Made by a program: the position numbers and the translations under genes. The notes under the pieces were generated by a model, which saw nothing but the letters and a program-made list of their open reading frames with translations, was not told the origin of the DNA and did not search any database. Below, piece by piece: positions 1-24,473 of a stretch of 64,000 nt of DNA; position 1 is the first letter of the stretch, and every line of letters starts with the position of its first letter. The stretch lies in assembly GCF_056712565.1 (NCBI RefSeq), contig NZ_CM160072.1; one strand, written 5' to 3'.

Positions 1-264
1 GGAGTAATCACCACCATGATTGCGTCACTGATTATTGGACCGTTACTGACACCGCTAAATACATTACAGGTATTATTAGCGGGTTTGTTAATTGGTATTA
101 GTGGTTTTTGCGGCGATGTAGTGATGTCAGCCACCAAACGAGATGTTGGTGTTAAAGATAGCGGAAAACTATTACCAGGACATGGCGGACTCCTTGACAG
201 GATTGACTCATTAATTTTCACCGCTCCGGTATTTTTTTATTTTATTCGCTACTGCTGTTACTGA
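1..264 (+). CDS. ynbB: CDP-diglyceride synthase (CdsA) family membrane protein, 3' part; 5' end lies outside the window
   Basis: Reading frame open from position 1 to stop at 264 (track ORF 16..264); C-terminal [12 protein letters not shown] motif typical of CdsA-family cytidylyltransferases; sits directly upstream of ynbC as in E. coli. Confidence 0.7.
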
Positions 265-279
265 AGGAAAACAGAGAAA

Positions 280-3343
<3,064 letters not shown>

Positions 3344-3396
3344 GCGGATTGAGATGTGGACTGAATATCTACAGTCCACATCAAGATCGTGTCCGG

Positions 3397-4011
<615 letters not shown>

Positions 4012-4202
4012 TTATAGATATTTGAATGGGCAATGCCCCGTTGCTTGTTGACACTTTATTCACAATCCTGCCACAGAGATAGCGCAATAAATCGAAGCCT
4101 ATGTTCGAATTTATTGAACAACGCATAGAAAGCCGCGATGTGGTACTCTATATCTATCATTTAAAAGAAAATTAATCAGGCAGACTACTGCCCACTAACG
4201 TT

Positions 4203-7200
4203 ATGACAGAACAACAAAAATTGACCTTTACTGCCTTGCAGCAGCGGCTGGATTCGCTGATGCTGCGTGACAGACTGCGTTTTTCTCGCCGTCTGCACGG
4301 CGTGAAGAAGGTTAAAAATCCTGATGCACAACAGGCCATTTTCCAGGAGATGGCGAAAGAGATTGACCATGCGGCAGGGAAAGTCCTGCTGCGTGAAGCG
4401 GCACGACCGGAGATTACTTACCCGGACAATTTGCCGGTTAGTCAGAAAAAACAGGACATTCTCGAAGCGATTCGTGACCACCAGGTGGTGATCGTCGCCG
4501 GGGAAACGGGTTCCGGTAAAACGACTCAGCTACCGAAAATCTGTATGGAGCTGGGTCGCGGGATTAAAGGGCTGATCGGCCATACCCAGCCGCGTCGGCT
4601 GGCGGCGCGAACGGTGGCGAACCGTATTGCGGAAGAGCTAAAAACGGAGCCGGGCGGTTGCATCGGTTACAAAGTGCGTTTCAGCGATCACGTCAGTGAT
4701 AACACGATGGTCAAGCTGATGACCGACGGTATCCTGCTGGCAGAGATCCAGCAAGACCGCCTGCTGATGCAGTACGACACCATCATTATTGACGAAGCGC
4801 ACGAACGCAGCCTGAATATCGATTTTCTCCTCGGCTATTTGAAAGAGTTGCTGCCGCGGCGTCCTGACCTAAAAATTATTATCACTTCCGCGACTATCGA
4901 CCCGGAACGCTTTTCGCGCCACTTTAATAATGCGCCGATTATCGAAGTCTCCGGTCGGACCTATCCGGTGGAAGTGCGCTATCGCCCGATTGTTGAAGAA
5001 GCTGATGACACCGAGCGCGACCAGTTGCAGGCGATTTTCGATGCCGTAGATGAACTGAGCCAGGAAAGCCCTGGCGACATTCTGATTTTTATGAGCGGCG
5101 AGCGAGAAATTCGCGATACCGCCGATGCGCTGAACAAGCTGAACTTACGCCATACGGAAATTCTTCCGCTTTATGCACGGCTTTCGAACAGCGAGCAGAA
5201 CCGCGTCTTCCAGTCGCACAGCGGACGGCGCATTGTGCTGGCGACTAACGTCGCGGAAACCTCGCTGACCGTACCGGGGATTAAATACGTTATCGACCCA
5301 GGTACGGCGCGTATCAGCCGCTACAGCTATCGCACCAAAGTGCAGCGTTTGCCGATTGAGCCAATTTCGCAGGCTTCAGCTAATCAGCGTAAAGGCCGCT
5401 GCGGTCGTGTGTCAGAAGGGATCTGTATTCGTCTCTATTCCGAAGACGATTTCCTCTCGCGCCCGGAGTTTACCGACCCAGAAATTCTGCGTACTAACCT
5501 GGCCTCGGTTATTTTGCAGATGACCGCACTGGGCTTGGGCGATATCGCCGCATTCCCGTTTGTCGAAGCACCGGATAAACGCAATATCCAGGATGGCGTG
5601 CGTCTGCTCGAAGAACTGGGCGCGATCACCACGGATGAACAGGCCAGCGCCTATAAACTGACGCCGCTCGGTCGCCAGCTCTCGCAGTTGCCTGTCGACC
5701 CACGTCTGGCGCGTATGGTGCTGGAAGCGCAAAAACATGGCTGCGTGCGTGAGGCGATGATTATCACTTCCGCGCTCTCTATTCAGGACCCGCGTGAGCG
5801 GCCAATGGACAAGCAGCAGGCATCGGACGAAAAACATCGTCGCTTCCACGACAAAGAGTCTGACTTCCTCGCGTTTGTGAATCTGTGGAATTATCTTGGC
5901 GAGCAGCAAAAGGCGCTTTCTTCAAACGCCTTCCGTCGCCTGTGCCGTACTGATTATCTCAACTATCTGCGCGTGCGCGAATGGCAGGATATCTACACCC
6001 AGTTGCGCCAGGTGGTGAAAGAACTTGGCATTCCGGTTAACAGCGAACCGGCGGATTATCGCGAAATTCACATTGCGTTGCTGACCGGTTTGCTTTCGCA
6101 TATCGGCATGAAAGATGCCGATAAACAAGAATATACCGGCGCACGTAACGCGCGTTTCTCCATCTTCCCCGGTTCCGGCTTATTCAAAAAACCGCCGAAA
6201 TGGGTAATGGTGGCGGAACTGGTAGAAACCAGCCGCCTGTGGGGACGCATTGCTGCGCGGATCGACCCGGAATGGGTGGAGCCAGTTGCTCAGCATTTGA
6301 TTAAACGCACCTATAGCGAACCGCACTGGGAACGGGCGCAGGGCGCGGTGATGGCAACGGAAAAAGTCACTGTTTATGGTTTGCCGATTGTTGCCGCGCG
6401 CAAGGTCAACTACAGCCAGATCGATCCGGCGTTATGTCGTGAACTCTTTATTCGCCACGCGCTGGTGGAAGGTGACTGGCAGACGCGTCACGCATTCTTC
6501 CGTGAAAACCTGAAACTACGGGCCGAAGTGGAAGAACTGGAACACAAAACTCGTCGCCGCGATATTCTGGTGGATGACGAAACGTTGTTTGAGTTCTACG
6601 ACCAGCGCATCAGCCACGATGTGATCTCCGCACGCCATTTCGACAGCTGGTGGAAAAAAGTCAGCCGCGAAACGCCTGATTTGCTCAACTTTGAAAAGAG
6701 CATGTTGATCAAAGAAGGGGCGGAAAAAATCAGCAAACTGGATTACCCGAACTTCTGGCATCAGGGCAATCTCAAACTGCGTTTGAGCTATCAGTTTGAG
6801 CCCGGCGCGGATGCTGACGGTGTGACCGTGCATATCCCGCTGCCGCTACTTAACCAGGTTGAGGAGAGTGGGTTTGAGTGGCAGATCCCCGGTCTGCGTC
6901 GTGAGCTGATCATCGCCCTGATTAAATCGCTGCCGAAGCCGGTACGCCGTAATTTTGTGCCCGCGCCAAACTTCGCCGAAGCGTTTTTAGGCCGCGTCAC
7001 ACCGCTGGAATTGCCGTTGCTCGACAGCCTTGAACGAGAGTTACGGCGGATGACTGGCGTCACCGTTGACCGCGAAGACTGGCACTGGGATCAGGTGCCC
7101 GATCACCTGAAAATCACTTTCCGCGTGGTGGATGACAAAAACAAGAAGCTAAAAGAAGGGCGCTCATTACAGGATCTGAAAGACGCCCTGAAAGGCAAAG

Positions 7201-8105
7201 TGCAGGAAACGCTGTCTGCCGTGGCGGATGACGGTATCGAGCAGAGCGGTTTACATATCTGGAGTTTTGGTCAACTGCCGGAAAGCTACGAGCAGAAGCG
7301 CGGCAACTACAAAGTGAAGGCTTGGCCGGCGCTGGTGGATGAGCGTGACAGCGTAGCGATCAAACTGTTTGATAACCCGCTGGAACAGAAGCAGGCAATG
7401 TGGAGCGGTCTTCGCCGTTTACTGCTGCTAAATATTCCATCGCCGATCAAGTACTTGCACGAAAAGCTGCCAAACAAAGCCAAGCTGGGGCTGTACTTTA
7501 ACCCGTATGGCAAAGTGCTGGAGCTGATCGATGACTGTATCTCATGCGGTGTGGATAAATTAATCGACGCCAACGGCGGTCCGGTCTGGACGGAAGAAGG
7601 CTTTGCTGCGCTGCATGAAAAAGTCCGCGCTGAACTGAACGACACGGTGGTGGATATTGCGAAGCAGGTCGAGCAAATCCTCACTGCGGTGTTCAATATC
7701 AACAAACGTCTGAAAGGGCGGGTGGATATGACCATGGCGCTGGGGCTTTCTGACATTAAAGCGCAGATGGGCGGGCTGGTGTATCGCGGTTTTGTCACTG
7801 GTAACGGCTTCAAACGGCTGGGCGACACGCTGCGTTATTTGCAGGCGATTGAAAAACGACTGGAAAAACTGGCGATTGATCCACATCGCGACCGTGCTCA
7901 GATGCTGAAAGTCGAAAACGTCCAGCAGGCGTGGCAGCAATGGATCAACAAACTACCGCCTGCACGTCGTGAGGATGAAGACGTGAAAGAGGTCCGCTGG
8001 ATGATAGAAGAGCTGCGCGTTAGTTACTTCGCTCAACAACTTGGCACGCCTTATCCGATTTCGGATAAGCGTATTTTGCAGGCGATGGAGCAGATTAGCG
8101 GTTAA
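4203..8105 (+). CDS. hrpA: ATP-dependent RNA helicase HrpA (DEAH-box)
   Basis: 1300 aa ORF; Walker A GETGSGKTTQLP, DEAH box (IIDEAHERS), helicase C-terminal motifs; length equals E. coli HrpA. Confidence 0.95.
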   Translation: MTEQQKLTFTALQQRLDSLMLRDRLRFSRRLHGVKKVKNPDAQQAIFQEMAKEIDHAAGKVLLREAARPEITYPDNLPVSQKKQDILEAIRDHQVVIVAGETGSGKTTQLPKICMELGRGIKGLIGHTQPRRLAARTVANRIAEELKTEPGGCIGYKVRFSDHVSDNTMVKLMTDGILLAEIQQDRLLMQYDTIIIDEAHERSLNIDFLLGYLKELLPRRPDLKIIITSATIDPERFSRHFNNAPIIEVSGRTYPVEVRYRPIVEEADDTERDQLQAIFDAVDELSQESPGDILIFMSGEREIRDTADALNKLNLRHTEILPLYARLSNSEQNRVFQSHSGRRIVLATNVAETSLTVPGIKYVIDPGTARISRYSYRTKVQRLPIEPISQASANQRKGRCGRVSEGICIRLYSEDDFLSRPEFTDPEILRTNLASVILQMTALGLGDIAAFPFVEAPDKRNIQDGVRLLEELGAITTDEQASAYKLTPLGRQLSQLPVDPRLARMVLEAQKHGCVREAMIITSALSIQDPRERPMDKQQASDEKHRRFHDKESDFLAFVNLWNYLGEQQKALSSNAFRRLCRTDYLNYLRVREWQDIYTQLRQVVKELGIPVNSEPADYREIHIALLTGLLSHIGMKDADKQEYTGARNARFSIFPGSGLFKKPPKWVMVAELVETSRLWGRIAARIDPEWVEPVAQHLIKRTYSEPHWERAQGAVMATEKVTVYGLPIVAARKVNYSQIDPALCRELFIRHALVEGDWQTRHAFFRENLKLRAEVEELEHKTRRRDILVDDETLFEFYDQRISHDVISARHFDSWWKKVSRETPDLLNFEKSMLIKEGAEKISKLDYPNFWHQGNLKLRLSYQFEPGADADGVTVHIPLPLLNQVEESGFEWQIPGLRRELIIALIKSLPKPVRRNFVPAPNFAEAFLGRVTPLELPLLDSLERELRRMTGVTVDREDWHWDQVPDHLKITFRVVDDKNKKLKEGRSLQDLKDALKGKVQETLSAVADDGIEQSGLHIWSFGQLPESYEQKRGNYKVKAWPALVDERDSVAIKLFDNPLEQKQAMWSGLRRLLLLNIPSPIKYLHEKLPNKAKLGLYFNPYGKVLELIDDCISCGVDKLIDANGGPVWTEEGFAALHEKVRAELNDTVVDIAKQVEQILTAVFNINKRLKGRVDMTMALGLSDIKAQMGGLVYRGFVTGNGFKRLGDTLRYLQAIEKRLEKLAIDPHRDRAQMLKVENVQQAWQQWINKLPPARREDEDVKEVRWMIEELRVSYFAQQLGTPYPISDKRILQAMEQISG

Positions 8106-16367: not shown

Positions 16368-18023
16368 ATGGATCGTAGACGATTTATTAAAGGTTCAATG
16401 GCTATGGCCGCCGTGTGCGGTACCAGCGGCATTGCTTCTCTTTTTTCTCAGGCGGCATTCGCGGCCGATTCTGATATTGCCGACGGGCAAACCCAGCGTT
16501 TTGACTTCTCCATTCTACAGTCAATGGCGCACGACTTAGCGCAAACAGCATGGCGTGGTGCACCACGTCCGTTACCTGACACTTTGGCGACAATGACGCC
16601 GCAGGCTTATAACAGTATTCAATACGACGCCGAAAAATCGCTCTGGCATAACGTTGAGAACCGTCAACTGGACGCTCAGTTTTTCCATATGGGAATGGGA
16701 TTCCGTCGCCGCGTTCGTATGTTTTCTGTAGATCCAGCAACACATCTGGCGCGTGAAATTCACTTTCGCCCGGAGTTGTTCAAATACAACGATGCGGGTG
16801 TGGATACCAAACAATTAGAAGGGCAAAGCGATCTCGGTTTTGCCGGTTTTCGCGTGTTTAAAGCCCCCGAACTGGCGCGCCGTGATGTAGTATCATTCCT
16901 CGGCGCGAGTTATTTCCGCGCCGTTGATGACACATATCAATACGGTTTGTCGGCCCGCGGCCTGGCGATCGACACTTACACCGACAGCAAAGAAGAGTTC
17001 CCCGACTTTACCGCCTTCTGGTTTGATACGGTAAAACCAGGGGCAACCACCTTTACCGTTTATGCGTTGCTCGATAGCGCCAGCATTACTGGTGCCTATA
17101 AGTTCACTATCCATTGTGAGAAAAATCAGGTGATTATGGATGTGGAAAATCACCTGTATGCGCGCAAAGACATTAAACAGCTGGGCATTGCGCCGATGAC
17201 CAGTATGTTCAGCTGCGGTACTAATGAACGTCGGATGTGCGACACCATTCATCCGCAAATCCATGACTCTGATCGTCTGTCCATGTGGCGGGGCAACGGC
17301 GAGTGGATTTGCCGTCCGCTGAACAATCCGCAAAAATTGCAGTTCAATGCTTACACCGACAACAACCCGAAAGGGTTTGGTTTATTGCAACTGGATCGTG
17401 ATTTCTCCCATTATCAGGACATTATGGGCTGGTATAACAAACGCCCAAGTCTGTGGGTGGAACCGCGTAACAAGTGGGGTAAGGGCACCATCGGCCTGAT
17501 GGAAATCCCAACAACGGGCGAAACGCTGGATAACATTGTCTGCTTCTGGCAGCCAGAAAAAGCTGTAAAAGCGGGTGATGAGTTTGCATTCCAGTATCGT
17601 CTGTACTGGAGTGCGCAACCGCCTGTTCATTGCCCATTAGCGCGCGTTATGGCGACGCGTACCGGCATGGGCGGTTTCCCGGAAGGTTGGGCGCCAGGTG
17701 AACACTATCCCGAAAAATGGGCGCGACGTTTTGCCGTCGATTTCGTTGGTGGTGATCTGAAAGCTGCCGCGCCAAAAGGCATTGAGCCGGTGATTACGCT
17801 TTCCAGTGGGGAAGCGAAGCAAATCGAAATTCTCTATATTGAACCCATTGATGGTTATCGTATTCAGTTTGACTGGTATCCGACTTCGGACTCCACTGAT
17901 CCGGTCGATATGCGGATGTATCTGCGTTGTCAGGGCGACGCTATCAGTGAAACATGGCTGTATCAGTATTTCCCGCCAGCGCCGGATAAACGTCAGTATG
18001 TTGATGACCGCGTGATGAGTTAA
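16368..18023 (+). CDS. opgD: glucans biosynthesis protein D (periplasmic, Tat signal peptide)
   Basis: 551 aa ORF; N-terminal twin-arginine motif [16 protein letters not shown]...AFA; matches E. coli OpgD/MdoD. Confidence 0.9.
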
Positions 18024-18162
18024 TCGTTTTTTCTTCGGCATCTTCTTCGGGAGGTGCCGTCTGGTTAAACACGATCCCGCTCGCATTTTTCCCTAAGTTA
18101 AATGAGTAATCTGATGGTGTGTATTTCAGATACACCTTGTCAGCCACTAACAGGGAGTGCGT

Positions 18163-18387
18163 ATGTTTCCAGAATACCGAGATTTAATATCCCGTCTGAA
18201 AAACGAAAATCCTCGCTTTATGTCCTTGTTCGATAAACACAATAAACTTGATCATGAAATTGCCAGAAAGGAAGGTTCCGACGGTCGAGGGTACAATGCG
18301 GAAGTGGTCCGCATGAAAAAACAAAAGCTACAGTTAAAAGATGAGATGCTCAAAATCCTGCAGCAGGTGAGCGTCAAAGAGGTGTAA
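18163..18387 (+). CDS. ydcH: DUF465-family small protein YdcH
   Basis: Track ORF begins at an upstream GTG; ATG at about 18163 gives 74 aa MFPEYRDLISRLKNENPRF... as in E. coli YdcH. Confidence 0.7.
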   Translation: MFPEYRDLISRLKNENPRFMSLFDKHNKLDHEIARKEGSDGRGYNAEVVRMKKQKLQLKDEMLKILQQVSVKEV

Positions 18388-18449
18388 ACTTTCCTAAGCC
18401 GCCAGCCAGGCGGCTTTTTTAACAGCTGCATGGATTGACTGGAGATAAG

Positions 18450-18989
18450 ATGACTGAAACGATAAAAGTAAGCGAATCGCTTGAATTACATGCTGTTGCG
18501 GAAAGTCATGTCACACCTCTTTATCAGTTAATCTGTAAAAATAAAACCTGGTTACAGCAGTCGCTAAACTGGCCGCAGTTTGTTCAAAGTGAAGAGGACA
18601 CGCGAAAAACGGTGCAGGGTAATGTGATGTTGCATCAACGCGGCTATGCCAAAATGTTCATGATTTTCAAAGAAGATGAACTTATCGGCGTTATCTCTTT
18701 TAATCGTATTGAACCACTGAATAAAACCGCTGAAATCGGCTACTGGCTGGACGAATCTCATCAGGGGCAGGGGATCATTTCTCAGGCGCTGCAGGCATTG
18801 ATTCATCATTACGCTCAGTCTGGTGAACTTAGACGCTTCGTGATCAAATGTCGGGTGGACAATCCGCAAAGCAACCAGGTAGCGTTGCGCAATGGTTTTA
18901 TCCTTGAAGGTTGCCTTAAACAGGCTGAGTTCCTGAATGATGCCTATGATGATGTGAACTTATACGCGCGTATTATCGATTCACAATAA
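18450..18989 (+). CDS. rimL: ribosomal-protein-serine N-acetyltransferase (GNAT)
   Basis: Track ORF starts at TTG 18435; ATG at 18450 with RBS ggaga gives 179 aa [16 protein letters not shown]..., matching RimL. Confidence 0.85.
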
Positions 18990-19961
18990 CCCTGCCAGCA
19001 GCGTTCGCGTAATGCGCTCCTCGCCGTTAATGACTTTTGGACCACGGACATGAATCGTGTCGCCATCAAAGGCTTCAACGACGGCGTGGTCAGTTAACTC
19101 CACATGGTTTTCAATTATCACCGCACCTGTAATACGGCTCTCACCTTGTATGACAACGTGCTCGTCGAGCAGAATCGGTCCGCCACGTACCACGGCATTT
19201 CCGCCAATCAAGACATGATGTTTTAACACACAATTACCTTCCACAATGGCATATTCCGCCACCTGTGAACTGTAATGAATCGTCGGAATGGCATCTTCTT
19301 CTATGCCAGCTTTCACCTGCGCGTGACCGTAGACTTTAGCGCAATCGCATAGCCAGACGTTGTTCTCTTCATTACCTTCAACACTGGCAAAATCAAAAAC
19401 TTCGGCGCGATGTTCAATAAAAGCATACCGGACGACGGCATCGCCATAAATTTGTGCCTGGTGGACAATACGCGAGGCGCTAACCTTTGCGCGATCATAA
19501 ATTTGTAGCAGGAGTTGATGGTCGGGCGTTAAGCCTTGTGCGGCGACGATCATAGAATGTTGATCAATTAAGGCGTGACCAAATATTCTACATTGACCAC
19601 AAACTAATGAGTCACGAATGGTGACACTGTCACTTATATATGCACCCTGGCTGATTTCACTATTATCGATCCAGACATTATCCGTTGCGTAAACCTCTCC
19701 CCACAGCACGCTGGTGCCGGTGATACGCGTATTCCCGGAAATCACCGTTCCGCCGAACGCAATAGCATTCTGGTCGTAAATCCAGCAATTTCCTTCCTGT
19801 GCTAACACCGTTTCGTGATCGATCCAGCCGCCAGCGCTTCCTGCTATCACATCGTTAAAATCGCTCATGGCGATAATTTGCCGTAATAACACACTTTTTT
19901 TAGTGCCATCTTCCTGATAACTAAAGGCTCGCTGTTCTTCACTTAGACGATATTTACGCAT
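18981..19961 (-). CDS. ydcK: left-handed beta-helix (hexapeptide-repeat) protein YdcK
   Basis: 326 aa ORF with repeated hexapeptide-like segments; 3' end overlaps the rimL 3' end by 9 nt (convergent). Confidence 0.8.
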
Positions 19962-20084
19962 AGCGTTTTCCCACAGGTGACTTACTATAACCGTAGCAAA
20001 TTCTGCGGCTCTGGCTATGCTCGAGAAAATTCCATAAAATGCATTTCAAATATACTTTATAAATTAAACAAAATGAGTAAGAAG

Positions 20085-21077
20085 ATGCAGAGCGATAAAG
20101 TGCTCAATTTGCCGGCAGGCTACTTTGGTATTGTGTTGGGGACGATAGGGATGGGATTTGCCTGGCGCTATGCCAGCCAGCTTTGGCAGGTCAGCCACTG
20201 GTTGGGTGATGGGCTGGTGATTCTGGCGATGATCATCTGGGGATTATTGACTGGCGCATTTATTACCCGACTCATACGCTTTCCGCATAGCGTGCTGGCA
20301 GAAGTGCGCCATCCAGTGCTGAGCAGTTTTGTGAGTTTGTTTCCGGCAACGACGATGCTGGTGGCGATTGGTTTTGTTCCGTGGTTTCGCCCACTGGCGG
20401 TGTGCCTGTTCAGTTTTGGTGTCGTGGTTCAGTTGGCTTATGCCGCATGGCAAACTGCGGGATTATGGCGCGGATCTCACCCTGAAGAAGCTACCACGCC
20501 TGGACTGTATCTGCCGACAGTTGCCAACAACTTTATCAGCGCAATGGCCTGTGGTGCGTTGGGCTACACCGACGCCGGTCTGGTGTTTTTAGGCGCAGGC
20601 GTTTTCTCATGGCTAAGCCTGGAACCGGTGATCTTGCAGCGTCTGCGCAGTTCGGGAGAATTACCCACGGCACTGCGGACATCACTCGGCATTCAGCTCG
20701 CTCCTGCGCTGGTGGCCTGTAGTGCCTGGCTGAGCGTCAACGGCGGCGAGGGTGACACGCTGGCGAAAATGCTTTTCGGTTATGGACTGCTGCAACTGCT
20801 GTTTATGCTACGTCTGATGCCATGGTATCTCTCCCAGCCATTTAATGCTTCATTCTGGAGTTTCTCGTTCGGTGTATCTGCACTGGCAACCACCGGTTTG
20901 CATCTGGGGAGTGGCAGCGATAATGGATTTTTCCATACGCTGGCGGTGCCGCTGTTTATCTTTACCAATTTTATTATTGCAATACTGCTCATCCGTACTT
21001 TTGCGCTTCTGATGCAGGGAAAATTGTTAGTCAGAACCGAGCGCGCCGTTTTAATGAAAGCAGAGGACAAAGAATGA
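20085..21077 (+). CDS. tehA: tellurite resistance / dicarboxylate-transporter-family membrane protein TehA
   Basis: Track ORF 19977..21077; start re-set to [19 protein letters not shown] giving 330 aa; polytopic membrane protein. Confidence 0.9.
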
Positions 21078-21667
21078 TCATTCGTGATGAAAACTATTTT
21101 ACTGATAAATATGAATTAACCCGCACACACTCTGAAGTGCTGGAAGCGGTGAAAGTGGTTAAACCGGGTAAAACGCTGGATCTGGGCTGTGGCAATGGTC
21201 GTAACAGTCTTTACCTGGCAGCCAATGGTTATGATGTTGACGCATGGGATAAAAATGCCATGAGTATCGCCAACGTCGAGCGCATTAAGTCCATTGAAAA
21301 TCTGGATAATTTACACACCCGGGTCGTTGATCTGAATAACCTCACATTTGATGGACAGTACGATTTTATTCTTTCTACTGTGGTGCTGATGTTCCTTGAG
21401 GCTAAAACCATCCCAGGGCTGATTGCCAATATGCAACGTTGCACTAAACCTGGCGGTTACAACCTGATTGTGGCGGCGATGGATACCGCTGATTATCCAT
21501 GTACCGTCGGCTTCCCGTTTGCCTTCAAAGAGGGGGAATTACGTCGATATTACGAAGGCTGGGAGAGGGTGAAATACAATGAAGACGTCGGCGAGCTGCA
21601 CCGCACCGACGCCAACGGTAATCGTATTAAACTGCGTTTCGCCACGATGCTGGCACGTAAAAAATGA
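21074..21667 (+). CDS. tehB: tellurite methyltransferase TehB (SAM-dependent)
   Basis: 197 aa ORF; start overlaps the tehA stop (ATGA); SAM-binding motif [15 protein letters not shown]. Confidence 0.9.
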
Positions 21668-21827
21668 TCCGGTAAGAACAAAGCGCGTGAAAATTCCCCA
21701 CGCTGAGATGGTTTACTGTTCTTCTTTTCGGTAAGCATATTTTTTATCGAAGGGATGTGAAATTAATCACAGTAGTCGAAGTTTTTTAGCCGCTTAACTT
21801 ACTGAAATTTAACTACTGATGATTGAC

Positions 21828-21873
21828 TTAGCCCCTTTTTCGGCATTGACTATGTCGTCTGAAAAGGGGCTAA
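21828..21873. repeat. perfect 12-bp inverted repeat with about 22-nt spacer (function unknown)
   Basis: ttagcccctttt ... aaaaggggctaa in the tehB-ydcL intergenic region; not followed by a T-run on either strand. Confidence 0.5.
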
Positions 21874-21969
21874 AAAATTTATTTTCACCAACACTTTTTT
21901 TGCCACAACACGAAGCGGCGCTTTTTGCTATAACTTAGAAAGTAATATAATCATCTCAGGAAACTATTC

Positions 21970-22638
21970 ATGCGTACCACATCATTTGCGAAAGTTGCAG
22001 CTTTATGCGGCTTGTTGGCTCTGTCTGGTTGTGCCTCTAAAATCACCCAGCCAGATAAATATTCTGGTTTTTTAAACAATTACTCTGATTTAAAAGAAAC
22101 AACCTCGGCAACAGGTAAACCTGTTTTACGTTGGGTAGACCCGAGTTTTGATCAAAGCAAATATGACAGCATCGTCTGGAACCCAATCACTTATTATCCG
22201 GTACCGAAACCTTCTACCCAGGTAGGGCAGAAAGTTCTGGATAAAATTTTGAACTATACCAACACCGAAATGAAAGAAGCGATAGCGCAGCGTAAACCAC
22301 TGGTTACCACCGCTGGGCCGCGTAGTCTGATTTTCCGTGGGGCCATTACCGGTGTAGATACCAGTAAAGAAGGGCTGCAATTCTATGAAGTGGTTCCTGT
22401 TGCATTAGTGGTTGCGGGGACGCAAATGGCTACAGGCCACCGTACCATGGATACTCGCTTGTATTTTGAAGGTGAGCTGATTGATGCAGCGACTAATAAA
22501 CCGGTTATCAAGGTCGTTCGTCAGGGCGAAGGTAAAGACCTGAATAACGAAAGTACGCCAATGGCTTTCGAAAATATTAAACAAGTTATTGATGACATGG
22601 CGACCGATGCCACCATGTTTGACGTTAACAAAAAGTAG
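21970..22638 (+). CDS. ydcL: lipoprotein YdcL
   Basis: 222 aa ORF; signal peptide with lipobox LALSGCAS. Confidence 0.8.
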   Translation: MRTTSFAKVAALCGLLALSGCASKITQPDKYSGFLNNYSDLKETTSATGKPVLRWVDPSFDQSKYDSIVWNPITYYPVPKPSTQVGQKVLDKILNYTNTEMKEAIAQRKPLVTTAGPRSLIFRGAITGVDTSKEGLQFYEVVPVALVVAGTQMATGHRTMDTRLYFEGELIDAATNKPVIKVVRQGEGKDLNNESTPMAFENIKQVIDDMATDATMFDVNKK

Positions 22639-22646
22639 TTCCAGAC

Positions 22647-22674
22647 GCGCCATCGTTAGATGGCGCTTTTTATT
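22647..22674 (+). terminator. rho-independent terminator of ydcL
   Basis: Stem gcgccatc / gatggcgc, loop gtta, followed by tttttatt; overlaps the 3' end of convergent ydcO. Confidence 0.65.
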
Positions 22675-23845
22675 ATCGGTTTCTGTCAGCGATTAAATTC
22701 AACACCACGTAACAAACGCCTCCGGCAATTAATCCCCAAAACGCAGAACCAATCCCGAACAGCGTCAATCCACTTGCCGTTACCAGAAATGCCACCACCG
22801 CCGCGTCGCGCTCACGCTCATTATGCAGCGCCTGATACAAACTGCCGCCAATGGTACTCAACAGCGCAAGACCTGCCAGCATCTGGATCCAACTTACGGG
22901 CAGGGCAGCCATCATCCCGGTAATGGCACTACCAAACAGACCTGCGATCAAATAAAAAATGCCGGCAACGGCAGCGGCCAGCCAACGTTGATCTTTATCC
23001 GGATGCGCTTCCGGGCTTTGGCAAATAGCCGCGGTGATTGCCGCAATACCGACGGAATAAACGCCGAAAGGGGAAAAAACAAGCGCCAGCAATCCAGTAA
23101 ACACAATCAACGGCGAAACAGGAGCCGAATACCCGGCTGCTTTCATTGCTGCGATACCCGGTGCGTTTTGCGATGCCATCGTCACCAGAAAAAGGGGGAG
23201 TGCAACGCTCAGACTGTGAGCAAACGAAAAATCAGGGGGAATATAAGTGGGGAGAACGGGTTTAAAGACAACATCAGTTGTGACAACGTCACCTTGCGCG
23301 ATAACGATCACGATCCCAATAATCATCGCGGCAATTACCGCATAGCGCGGCGCAACGGCCCTGGTTGCCAGCCATGCCAGCAACATACTGCCACACAACG
23401 TAAATTGACCATCCAGACTGGCAAACGCCTGTAAACCAAAACGTAATAAAATCCCGGCAAGCATTGCCGCCGCAAGCGAGTGCGGAATAATGCGCATCAG
23501 ACGAGCAAAGAGTCCCGTTATGCCGCAGAGGACTATTAACACGTTGGTGACAATAAAAACGCCGATGGTTTCGTTAAGTGTTAGTCCCTGCAATCCGGTG
23601 ACCAACAAAGCCGCGCCAGGCGTTGACCATGCGGTGAGAACAGGTACGCGATACCATAATGTCAGAGCCAGCGTACTGACGCCCATTGCCAGCCCCAGCG
23701 CCGTCATCCAGCCAGAGATTTGTGCAGTGGTGGCTCCGGCGACAATCGCTGCTTGCCAGATTATTGCCGCTGAACTGGCGTAGCCAATTAATACCGCCAG
23801 AAACCCCGCCAGTAGCGTGGGTGGAGGAATAGAAAACAGACGCAT
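22673..23845 (-). CDS. ydcO: BenE-family (benzoate transporter-like) membrane protein
   Basis: Track ORF 22673..23968; start re-set to MRLFSIPPPTLLAGFLAV (about 390 aa); highly hydrophobic polytopic protein. Confidence 0.8.
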   Translation of the reverse strand: MRLFSIPPPTLLAGFLAVLIGYASSAAIIWQAAIVAGATTAQISGWMTALGLAMGVSTLALTLWYRVPVLTAWSTPGAALLVTGLQGLTLNETIGVFIVTNVLIVLCGITGLFARLMRIIPHSLAAAMLAGILLRFGLQAFASLDGQFTLCGSMLLAWLATRAVAPRYAVIAAMIIGIVIVIAQGDVVTTDVVFKPVLPTYIPPDFSFAHSLSVALPLFLVTMASQNAPGIAAMKAAGYSAPVSPLIVFTGLLALVFSPFGVYSVGIAAITAAICQSPEAHPDKDQRWLAAAVAGIFYLIAGLFGSAITGMMAALPVSWIQMLAGLALLSTIGGSLYQALHNERERDAAVVAFLVTASGLTLFGIGSAFWGLIAGGVCYVVLNLIADRNR

Positions 23846-23854
23846 AGTCACCTC

Positions 23855-23902
23855 GTGCGTTATAACGTACAGGTACCGTAGCATTTGTCCGTTATAACGC
23901 AC
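23855..23902. promoter_or_regulatory. candidate operator: two copies of the palindrome cgttataacg in the divergent ydcO-sutR control region
   Basis: gtgcgttataacg (about 23855-23867) and cgttataacgcac (about 23890-23902) are exact reverse complements; each core cgttataacg is itself palindromic; located between divergent starts of ydcO and the XRE/cupin regulator gene. Confidence 0.4.
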
Positions 23903-23936
23903 AAGTGATAAACTTCCGTTTTGCCGGAGGAGTCGC

Positions 23937-24473
23937 ATGGAAAATCTCGCTCGCTTTTTATCCACCACACTTAAACAACTACGTCAGCAGCGCGGCTGGA
24001 GTCTTTCGCGACTGGCAGAAGCGACGGGCGTTTCTAAAGCGATGTTAGGGCAGATTGAGCGTAATGAATCCAGCCCGACGGTCGCGACATTATGGAAAAT
24101 TGCCACCGGGTTGAACGTGCCATTTTCAACATTTATTTCCCCGCCGCAGTCCGCTACGCCTTCAGTTTATGATCCACAACGGCAGGCGATGGTGATCACT
24201 TCGCTGTTTCCTTATGATCCACAACTCTGCTTTGAACACTTCTCGATTCAGATGGCACCCGGTGCAATAAGCGAATCGACGCCCCATGAAAAGGGGGTAA
24301 TCGAACATGTCGTCGTCATTGATGGACAACTTGATCTGTGTGTTGATGGTGAATGGCAGAGCCTTAATTGTGGGGAAGGCGTTCGATTTGCTGCAGACGT
24401 CACGCATGTCTATCGTAATGGTGGAGAGCAAACCGTACATTTTCATTCCCTCATCCATTACCCGCGCAGTTAA
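23937..24473 (+). CDS. sutR: XRE-family HTH + cupin-domain transcriptional regulator (SutR/YdcN)
   Basis: 178 aa ORF; N-terminal HTH (LSRLAEATGVSKAMLGQIERNES) and C-terminal cupin-like domain. Confidence 0.8.
   Translation: MENLARFLSTTLKQLRQQRGWSLSRLAEATGVSKAMLGQIERNESSPTVATLWKIATGLNVPFSTFISPPQSATPSVYDPQRQAMVITSLFPYDPQLCFEHFSIQMAPGAISESTPHEKGVIEHVVVIDGQLDLCVDGEWQSLNCGEGVRFAADVTHVYRNGGEQTVHFHSLIHYPRS

Follow-up and report, generated by a model that had tools for sequence, protein, structure and literature searches.

Is the uninterrupted junction between ydcL and ydcO in this E. coli chromosome the original state of the locus, or is it a site from which an insertion sequence has been lost? The question arose from an initial annotation of the stretch of 64,000 nucleotides analysed here (the window), which described the two genes as directly convergent, with a shared terminator and no insertion sequence between them, noted that K-12 carries an IS609-type insQ/ydcM transposase at this place, and proposed that its absence reflects the ancestral, empty site.

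The ydcL-ydcO junction and its terminator

The open reading frames and the RefSeq annotation of the 100%-identical stretch of ATCC 11775 agree on the same two genes, placed tail to tail. The gene ydcL, which encodes a DUF3313 lipoprotein (Pfam DUF3313, E = 4e-63), occupies positions 21970-22638 on the plus strand, with its stop codon TAG at 22636-22638, and ydcO, which encodes a BenE-family transporter of 390 aa (Pfam BenE, E = 3e-160), occupies 22673-23845 on the minus strand, with its stop codon TAA at 22673-22675 (the complement of 22675-22673). The convergent arrangement had therefore been described correctly, and the spacer between the two stops, first given as about 35 bp, measures 34 bp (22639-22672). 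No IS200/IS605-family element, with end hairpins and tnpA/tnpB, is present in this spacer, and an Rfam search for small RNAs in it returned nothing, even at E <= 1.

Positions 21900-24000 of the window are 100% identical to ATCC 11775, UTI89, S88 and other strains, which we take to belong to phylogroup B2. A comparison with ATCC 11775 over the larger interval 12000-36000 shows 3 SNPs and, in the window, an 11-bp deletion (TTAAATGCTTT), located after window position ~27073 in the region of a hicB remnant. The counterpart of this interval spans 24,012 bases in other top-ranked genomes versus 24,001 in the window, and the 11 bp that are lacking may be a private deletion of the source strain. On the far side of ydcO, the divergent ydcO-sutR intergenic region (23844-23911) has two copies of the palindrome CGTTATAACG, and Rfam matches it weakly on both strands; the palindrome could be a candidate SutR operator.

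The spacer contains a single hairpin (22647-22666, plus strand), detected by a terminator scan and by RNA folding, in which an 8-bp GC-rich stem, GCGCCATC/GATGGCGC, with 6 GC pairs of 8, closes the 4-nt loop GTTA. As RNA it folds with -16.7 kcal/mol (z = -3.3 compared with shuffles), and its stem is conserved in E. coli and in three other Escherichia species. On the plus strand the hairpin is followed by TTTTTATTAT, with the U-tract TTTTTAT at 22667-22673 on that strand only, and hairpin and U-tract together constitute a predicted canonical intrinsic terminator for ydcL, similar to the intrinsic terminators found between convergent genes in having one GC-rich 8-bp hairpin between the stops and a canonical U-tract for ydcL. 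The notion of a shared terminator holds for ydcL, but not for ydcO. No A-tract lies upstream of the hairpin on the plus strand, so the ydcO transcript has no U-tract, and what comes after the hairpin on the minus strand is GUCUGGAACUAC; the terminator scan likewise reports the spacer site on the plus strand only. Judged by its sequence, the hairpin is not a bidirectional (shared) intrinsic terminator, a class from which it differs in offering no U-tract to the ydcO transcript.

The vacant IS609 target site

The annotation of K-12 MG1655 (NC_000913.3) places between ydcL and ydcO a feature named 'insertion sequence:IS609', of 1,748 bp, containing yncK, a tnpA pseudogene on the minus strand, and insQ/tnpB (b1432, ydcM) on the plus strand, in agreement with the initial annotation. 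Alignment to K-12 corroborated that the arrangement of the window is a different one. Positions 1-5161 of the K-12 locus align to window 17512-22673 and positions 6910-8001 to window 22674-23765, with flanks that are 97.5-98.4% identical to those of the window. The two loci occupy the same chromosomal position and their flanks break at the same base, between window positions 22673 and 22674 (TTAT/TATCGG), with no target duplication and no base lost; the junctions in K-12 read GCGCTTTTTAT / CCGGTGCG...GGATGTCAA / TATCGG. Whereas the whole element is missing from the window, where ydcO keeps its own TAA, in K-12 the insertion point splits the ydcO stop codon (TA/A), and the gene continues through one added Tyr codon to a TGA supplied by the right end of IS609. 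The K-12 ydcO is accordingly annotated from position 6906 of the locus, inside the IS609 feature, which ends at 6909. The window is a clean vacant IS609 target site, with TTAT (22670-22673, plus strand) 5' of the point and flanks that join without duplication, deletion or remnant. A decayed IS609 remnant or footprint in the spacer was also considered and is ruled out by the base-perfect junction.

The motif is not peculiar to this locus. Five independent chromosomal sites were compared (ydcL/ydcO, a tetR-like gene near ytfB, yedK, a DUF3251 gene and gltX/yfeD), and in all five IS609 begins after TTAT and closes with GTCAA (TTAT/CCGGTG...GTCAA/). This rule fits the mechanism of the IS200/IS605 family, in which insertion takes place 3' of a short motif without duplication; IS609, a member of the family, inserts as single-stranded DNA immediately 3' of TTAT. 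Moreover, the presence of TTAT at every examined site predicts that this motif is the one needed by the IS609 TnpB nuclease. The corresponding motif is TTAC for IS608 and TTGAT for ISDra2. For TnpB2 of G. stearothermophilus the transposon-adjacent motif is TTTAT, compared with TTAT for IS609 (10.1101/2023.03.14.532601). The window is similar to the vacant sites described for IS608, ISDra2 and ISGst in that the motif abuts the right-flank sequence with no duplication and no scar (10.1101/2023.03.14.532601). In E. coli the TTAT of this locus comes from the U-tract TTTTTAT, the tail of the ydcL terminator, which runs into the ydcO stop codon. The equivalent of TTAT is GGAT or TGAT in two of three outgroup Escherichia, the three outgroup junctions reading ...GCGCTTCGGAT/TATCGG, ...TTCTGAT/... 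and ...TTCTTAT/....

The same bases can be read as a potential nuclease target. The TnpB proteins of related elements work with an RNA whose transcription crosses the right end and whose guide is the flanking sequence, and they cut copies of the empty site that carry the motif (10.1101/2023.03.14.532601). The junction sequences identify TATCGGTTTCTGTCAG (22674-22689, plus strand) as the stretch that adjoins the right end of IS609 in K-12, and we infer that it matches the guide of an omega RNA, assuming the 16-nt guide length of other TnpB systems. TTAT and TATCGGTTTCTGTCAG together (22670-22689) would then form the exact target of a K-12-type IS609 TnpB-omega RNA complex. InsQ has the Pfam domains OrfB_IS605, TNB and HTH. 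The single Rfam signal over the right end of IS609, where an omega RNA is expected, is a match to HgcC RNA that lies below threshold (22 bits versus a gathering score of 50, E = 0.019); it spans positions 6803-6919 of the K-12 locus and also takes in the 3' end of insQ.

Ancestral vacancy or loss by excision

Population counts were made on 5,416 complete E. coli genomes with a match to the locus. A short junction query found the spacer uninterrupted, as in the window, in 2,043 genomes (38%); 3,251 genomes (about 60%) have IS609 in it, in the K-12 arrangement; 93 have a different element, IS200C (709 bp); and other arrangements account, by subtraction, for about 29. The difference between empty and IS609-occupied ydcL/ydcO junctions is thus an ordinary and already annotated presence/absence polymorphism. 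IS609 is found somewhere in the genome in 5,016 of 5,426 E. coli genomes. The initial annotation had proposed a search for IS609 copies elsewhere in the genome: blastn with the K-12 IS609 and tblastn with InsQ detected neither IS609 DNA nor InsQ-like coding sequence in the 64-kb window, giving matches at chance level only. The whole chromosome was covered by proxy, through close relatives standing in for the source genome, and a chimeric query, made of a window segment and the reverse-complemented IS609, found no IS609 on the chromosome of ATCC 11775, UTI89 and S88, nor on that of most of the remaining relatives with 100% identity.

Because IS200/IS605 transposases excise without a scar, leaving 'donor joints' (Meers et al., 10.1101/2023.03.14.532601), the junction sequence alone cannot decide between an ancestral and an excised site, and it counts against the ancestral reading that an excised site would look identical. 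The evidence has to come from the distribution of the element. A scan with YdcL against species-representative genomes yielded 80 loci, and three non-coli Escherichia species among them (L004, L005 and L006), at a divergence of 9.8-12.2% in a two-flank alignment, have the ydcL-hairpin-ydcO junction without an insertion sequence. In a neighbour-joining tree of the flanks (16 sequences, 2,682 gap-free flank columns, one locus) the sampled IS609 carriers, K-12, PC-NDM34, E2865 and NCTC11129, group together in a single nested clade, recovered in 180 of 200 bootstraps, with the O157:H7 flanks as its sister group; the site is vacant in all basal E. coli lineages. Since the four carriers are nested and the basal lineages empty, a single gain on the carrier stem is most parsimonious and the state of the window ancestral. 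The small size of the tree (16 sequences, ~2.7 kb, one locus) limits confidence in it, and recombination could distort it.

On this evidence the empty state of the window is very probably ancestral, at a site that was never occupied. The proposal of the initial annotation is thereby supported by the empty outgroups, the nested clade of carriers and the IS609-free close relatives. The most economical history would be one in which IS609 inserted once, in an ancestor of the lineage that contains K-12, and is now present by descent in about 60% of sequenced E. coli, while the window lineage, of the phylogroup-B2 type, never received it. In the carrier lineage tnpA would then have decayed in several independent ways and tnpB (insQ) stayed intact.

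The state of the IS609 copies is compatible with that last step. At the ydcL/ydcO site tnpA is interrupted by a single TGA nonsense codon in K-12, by an N-terminal frameshift in PC-NDM34 and NCTC11129, and by a deletion and a stop in E2865, and insQ is full length (402 codons) in all four copies. Across nine IS609 copies (L001, L084, L087, L088 and L094-L098) insQ is annotated as intact in every one (1,209 nt, except for the 1,197 nt of CB7286), and tnpA carries differing lesions in nearly all of them, being intact only in O157:H7 ATCC 43888 (L094 458-889). K-12 has one IS609 copy, for which no transposition was detected in mutation-accumulation lines (PMC5009759), and the literature that we found on IS609 or insQ at ydcL/ydcO consists of resistome surveys and this K-12 mutation-accumulation study (PMC5009759). 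The copy at ydcL/ydcO in E2865 (L087 1705-3447) and the copy at yedK in O91 RM7190 (L095 401-2143) have the same tnpA deletion and internal stop, which suggests that a defective copy was mobilised in trans, or that gene conversion took place.

Occupancy of the site is also found outside E. coli. Escherichia sp. MOD1-EC7003, which is basal to E. coli in a left-flank tree, carries, at the TTAT used by the K-12 insertion, a 46-nt mini-IS609 (L003 4704-4749), in which the left tip is fused to the right end (CCAGTGCGCC...GTCCTTCAGTGCGTGGAGGATGCCAA), and a deletion beside it takes out ydcO and most of sutR. A search of 5,426 E. coli genomes found no such arrangement. The lineage of MOD1-EC7003 had its site occupied independently, and occupancy therefore extends beyond one clade.

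These two sets of observations bear on the alternative that an ancestor of the window had IS609 at this site and lost it through precise excision by TnpA, with TTAT/TATCGG restored. The differences in tnpA lesions between carriers imply that tnpA was intact on arrival and that excision was once possible, IS200/IS605 excision normally leaves a scarless donor joint (10.1101/2023.03.14.532601), and a basal Escherichia lineage did have IS609 at the same point. However, on the sampled tree excision requires one early gain and at least 5 separate precise losses, compared with two gains if the empty state is ancestral; the three outgroup species are empty, the close relatives of the window have no chromosomal IS609 that could serve as a source of TnpA, and TnpB is reported to counteract loss (10.1101/2023.03.14.532601). 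We consider excision very unlikely. In contrast with the donor joints of IS608, ISDra2 and ISGst, the site in the window is most likely one that was never occupied, and not an excision product.

Repeated use of the terminator tail

IS609 is not the only element that has used these bases. IS200C lies inside the ydcL U-tract, two bases upstream of the IS609 point, at the position equivalent to window 22671/22672, as in E. coli FDAARGOS_1370 (L083 about 1705-2413). Its carriers look like one clone: the top 25 listed are 100% identical across the junction, with 17-27 places matching the query in each. The bases that follow the ydcL hairpin have thus been struck at least three times, by IS609 in the K-12 clade, by IS609 in MOD1-EC7003 and by IS200C.

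Such repeated use raises the possibility that the spacer is a recurrent hotspot for IS200/IS605 elements, and that the patchy distribution comes from repeated gains, or from spread by recombination helped by TnpB cleavage of empty alleles. The three separate occupancies of the same few bases speak for it, as do the IS609 site at gltX/yfeD, which also follows a T-run ending in TTAT, and the presence of TTAT and of the exact right-flank sequence in the empty allele. Against it, the sampled carriers belong to one flank clade, so that repeated gain within E. coli is not needed, the IS200C carriers have the appearance of a single clone, and both the InsQ nuclease and the omega RNA are putative, with a right-end Rfam match that is below threshold. 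We regard this explanation as tenable, though the less probable one. The stronger proposition, that the terminator tail is a preferred landing site for IS200/IS605 elements and that the 60% frequency of IS609 results in part from TnpB-guided cleavage of empty alleles after DNA exchange, is speculative and, in our judgement, unlikely to be correct. If it were true, IS609 would be a naturally occurring gene drive on the chromosome, acting between lineages of E. coli.

On a wider scale the compact junction itself has a history. In most other Enterobacteriaceae (Citrobacter, Enterobacter, Klebsiella, Kluyvera and others; most of L008-L082) the gap between ydcL and ydcO is ~2 kb, and in Citrobacter sp. 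wls619 (L008 4708-6670), the only locus for which the open reading frames of the gap were read, it contains an EamA-family transporter and an AraC-family regulator. The extra 2 kb are absent from Escherichia, Salmonella and Atlantibacter, from which it follows that the tight convergent junction is derived at the level of the family. For O157:H7 EC4115 and ETEC4079 (L086 1704-2877 and L091 1704-2875) the annotation gives ydcO a frameshift, and the type strain of E. albertii (L007) lacks the gene; it appears to be dispensable in several lineages.

With the window read as the ancestral, unoccupied state, it is the K-12 reference that represents the derived condition, an IS609 insertion, and the strain studied here, like 38% of complete E. 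coli genomes, that has the original junction. The empty site as such is of little importance beyond bookkeeping and belongs to already known biology. What remains of mild interest is the repeated use of a terminator tail by IS200/IS605 elements, and the locus, where natural alleles with and without the element can be paired, lends itself to tests of TnpB homing in E. coli.
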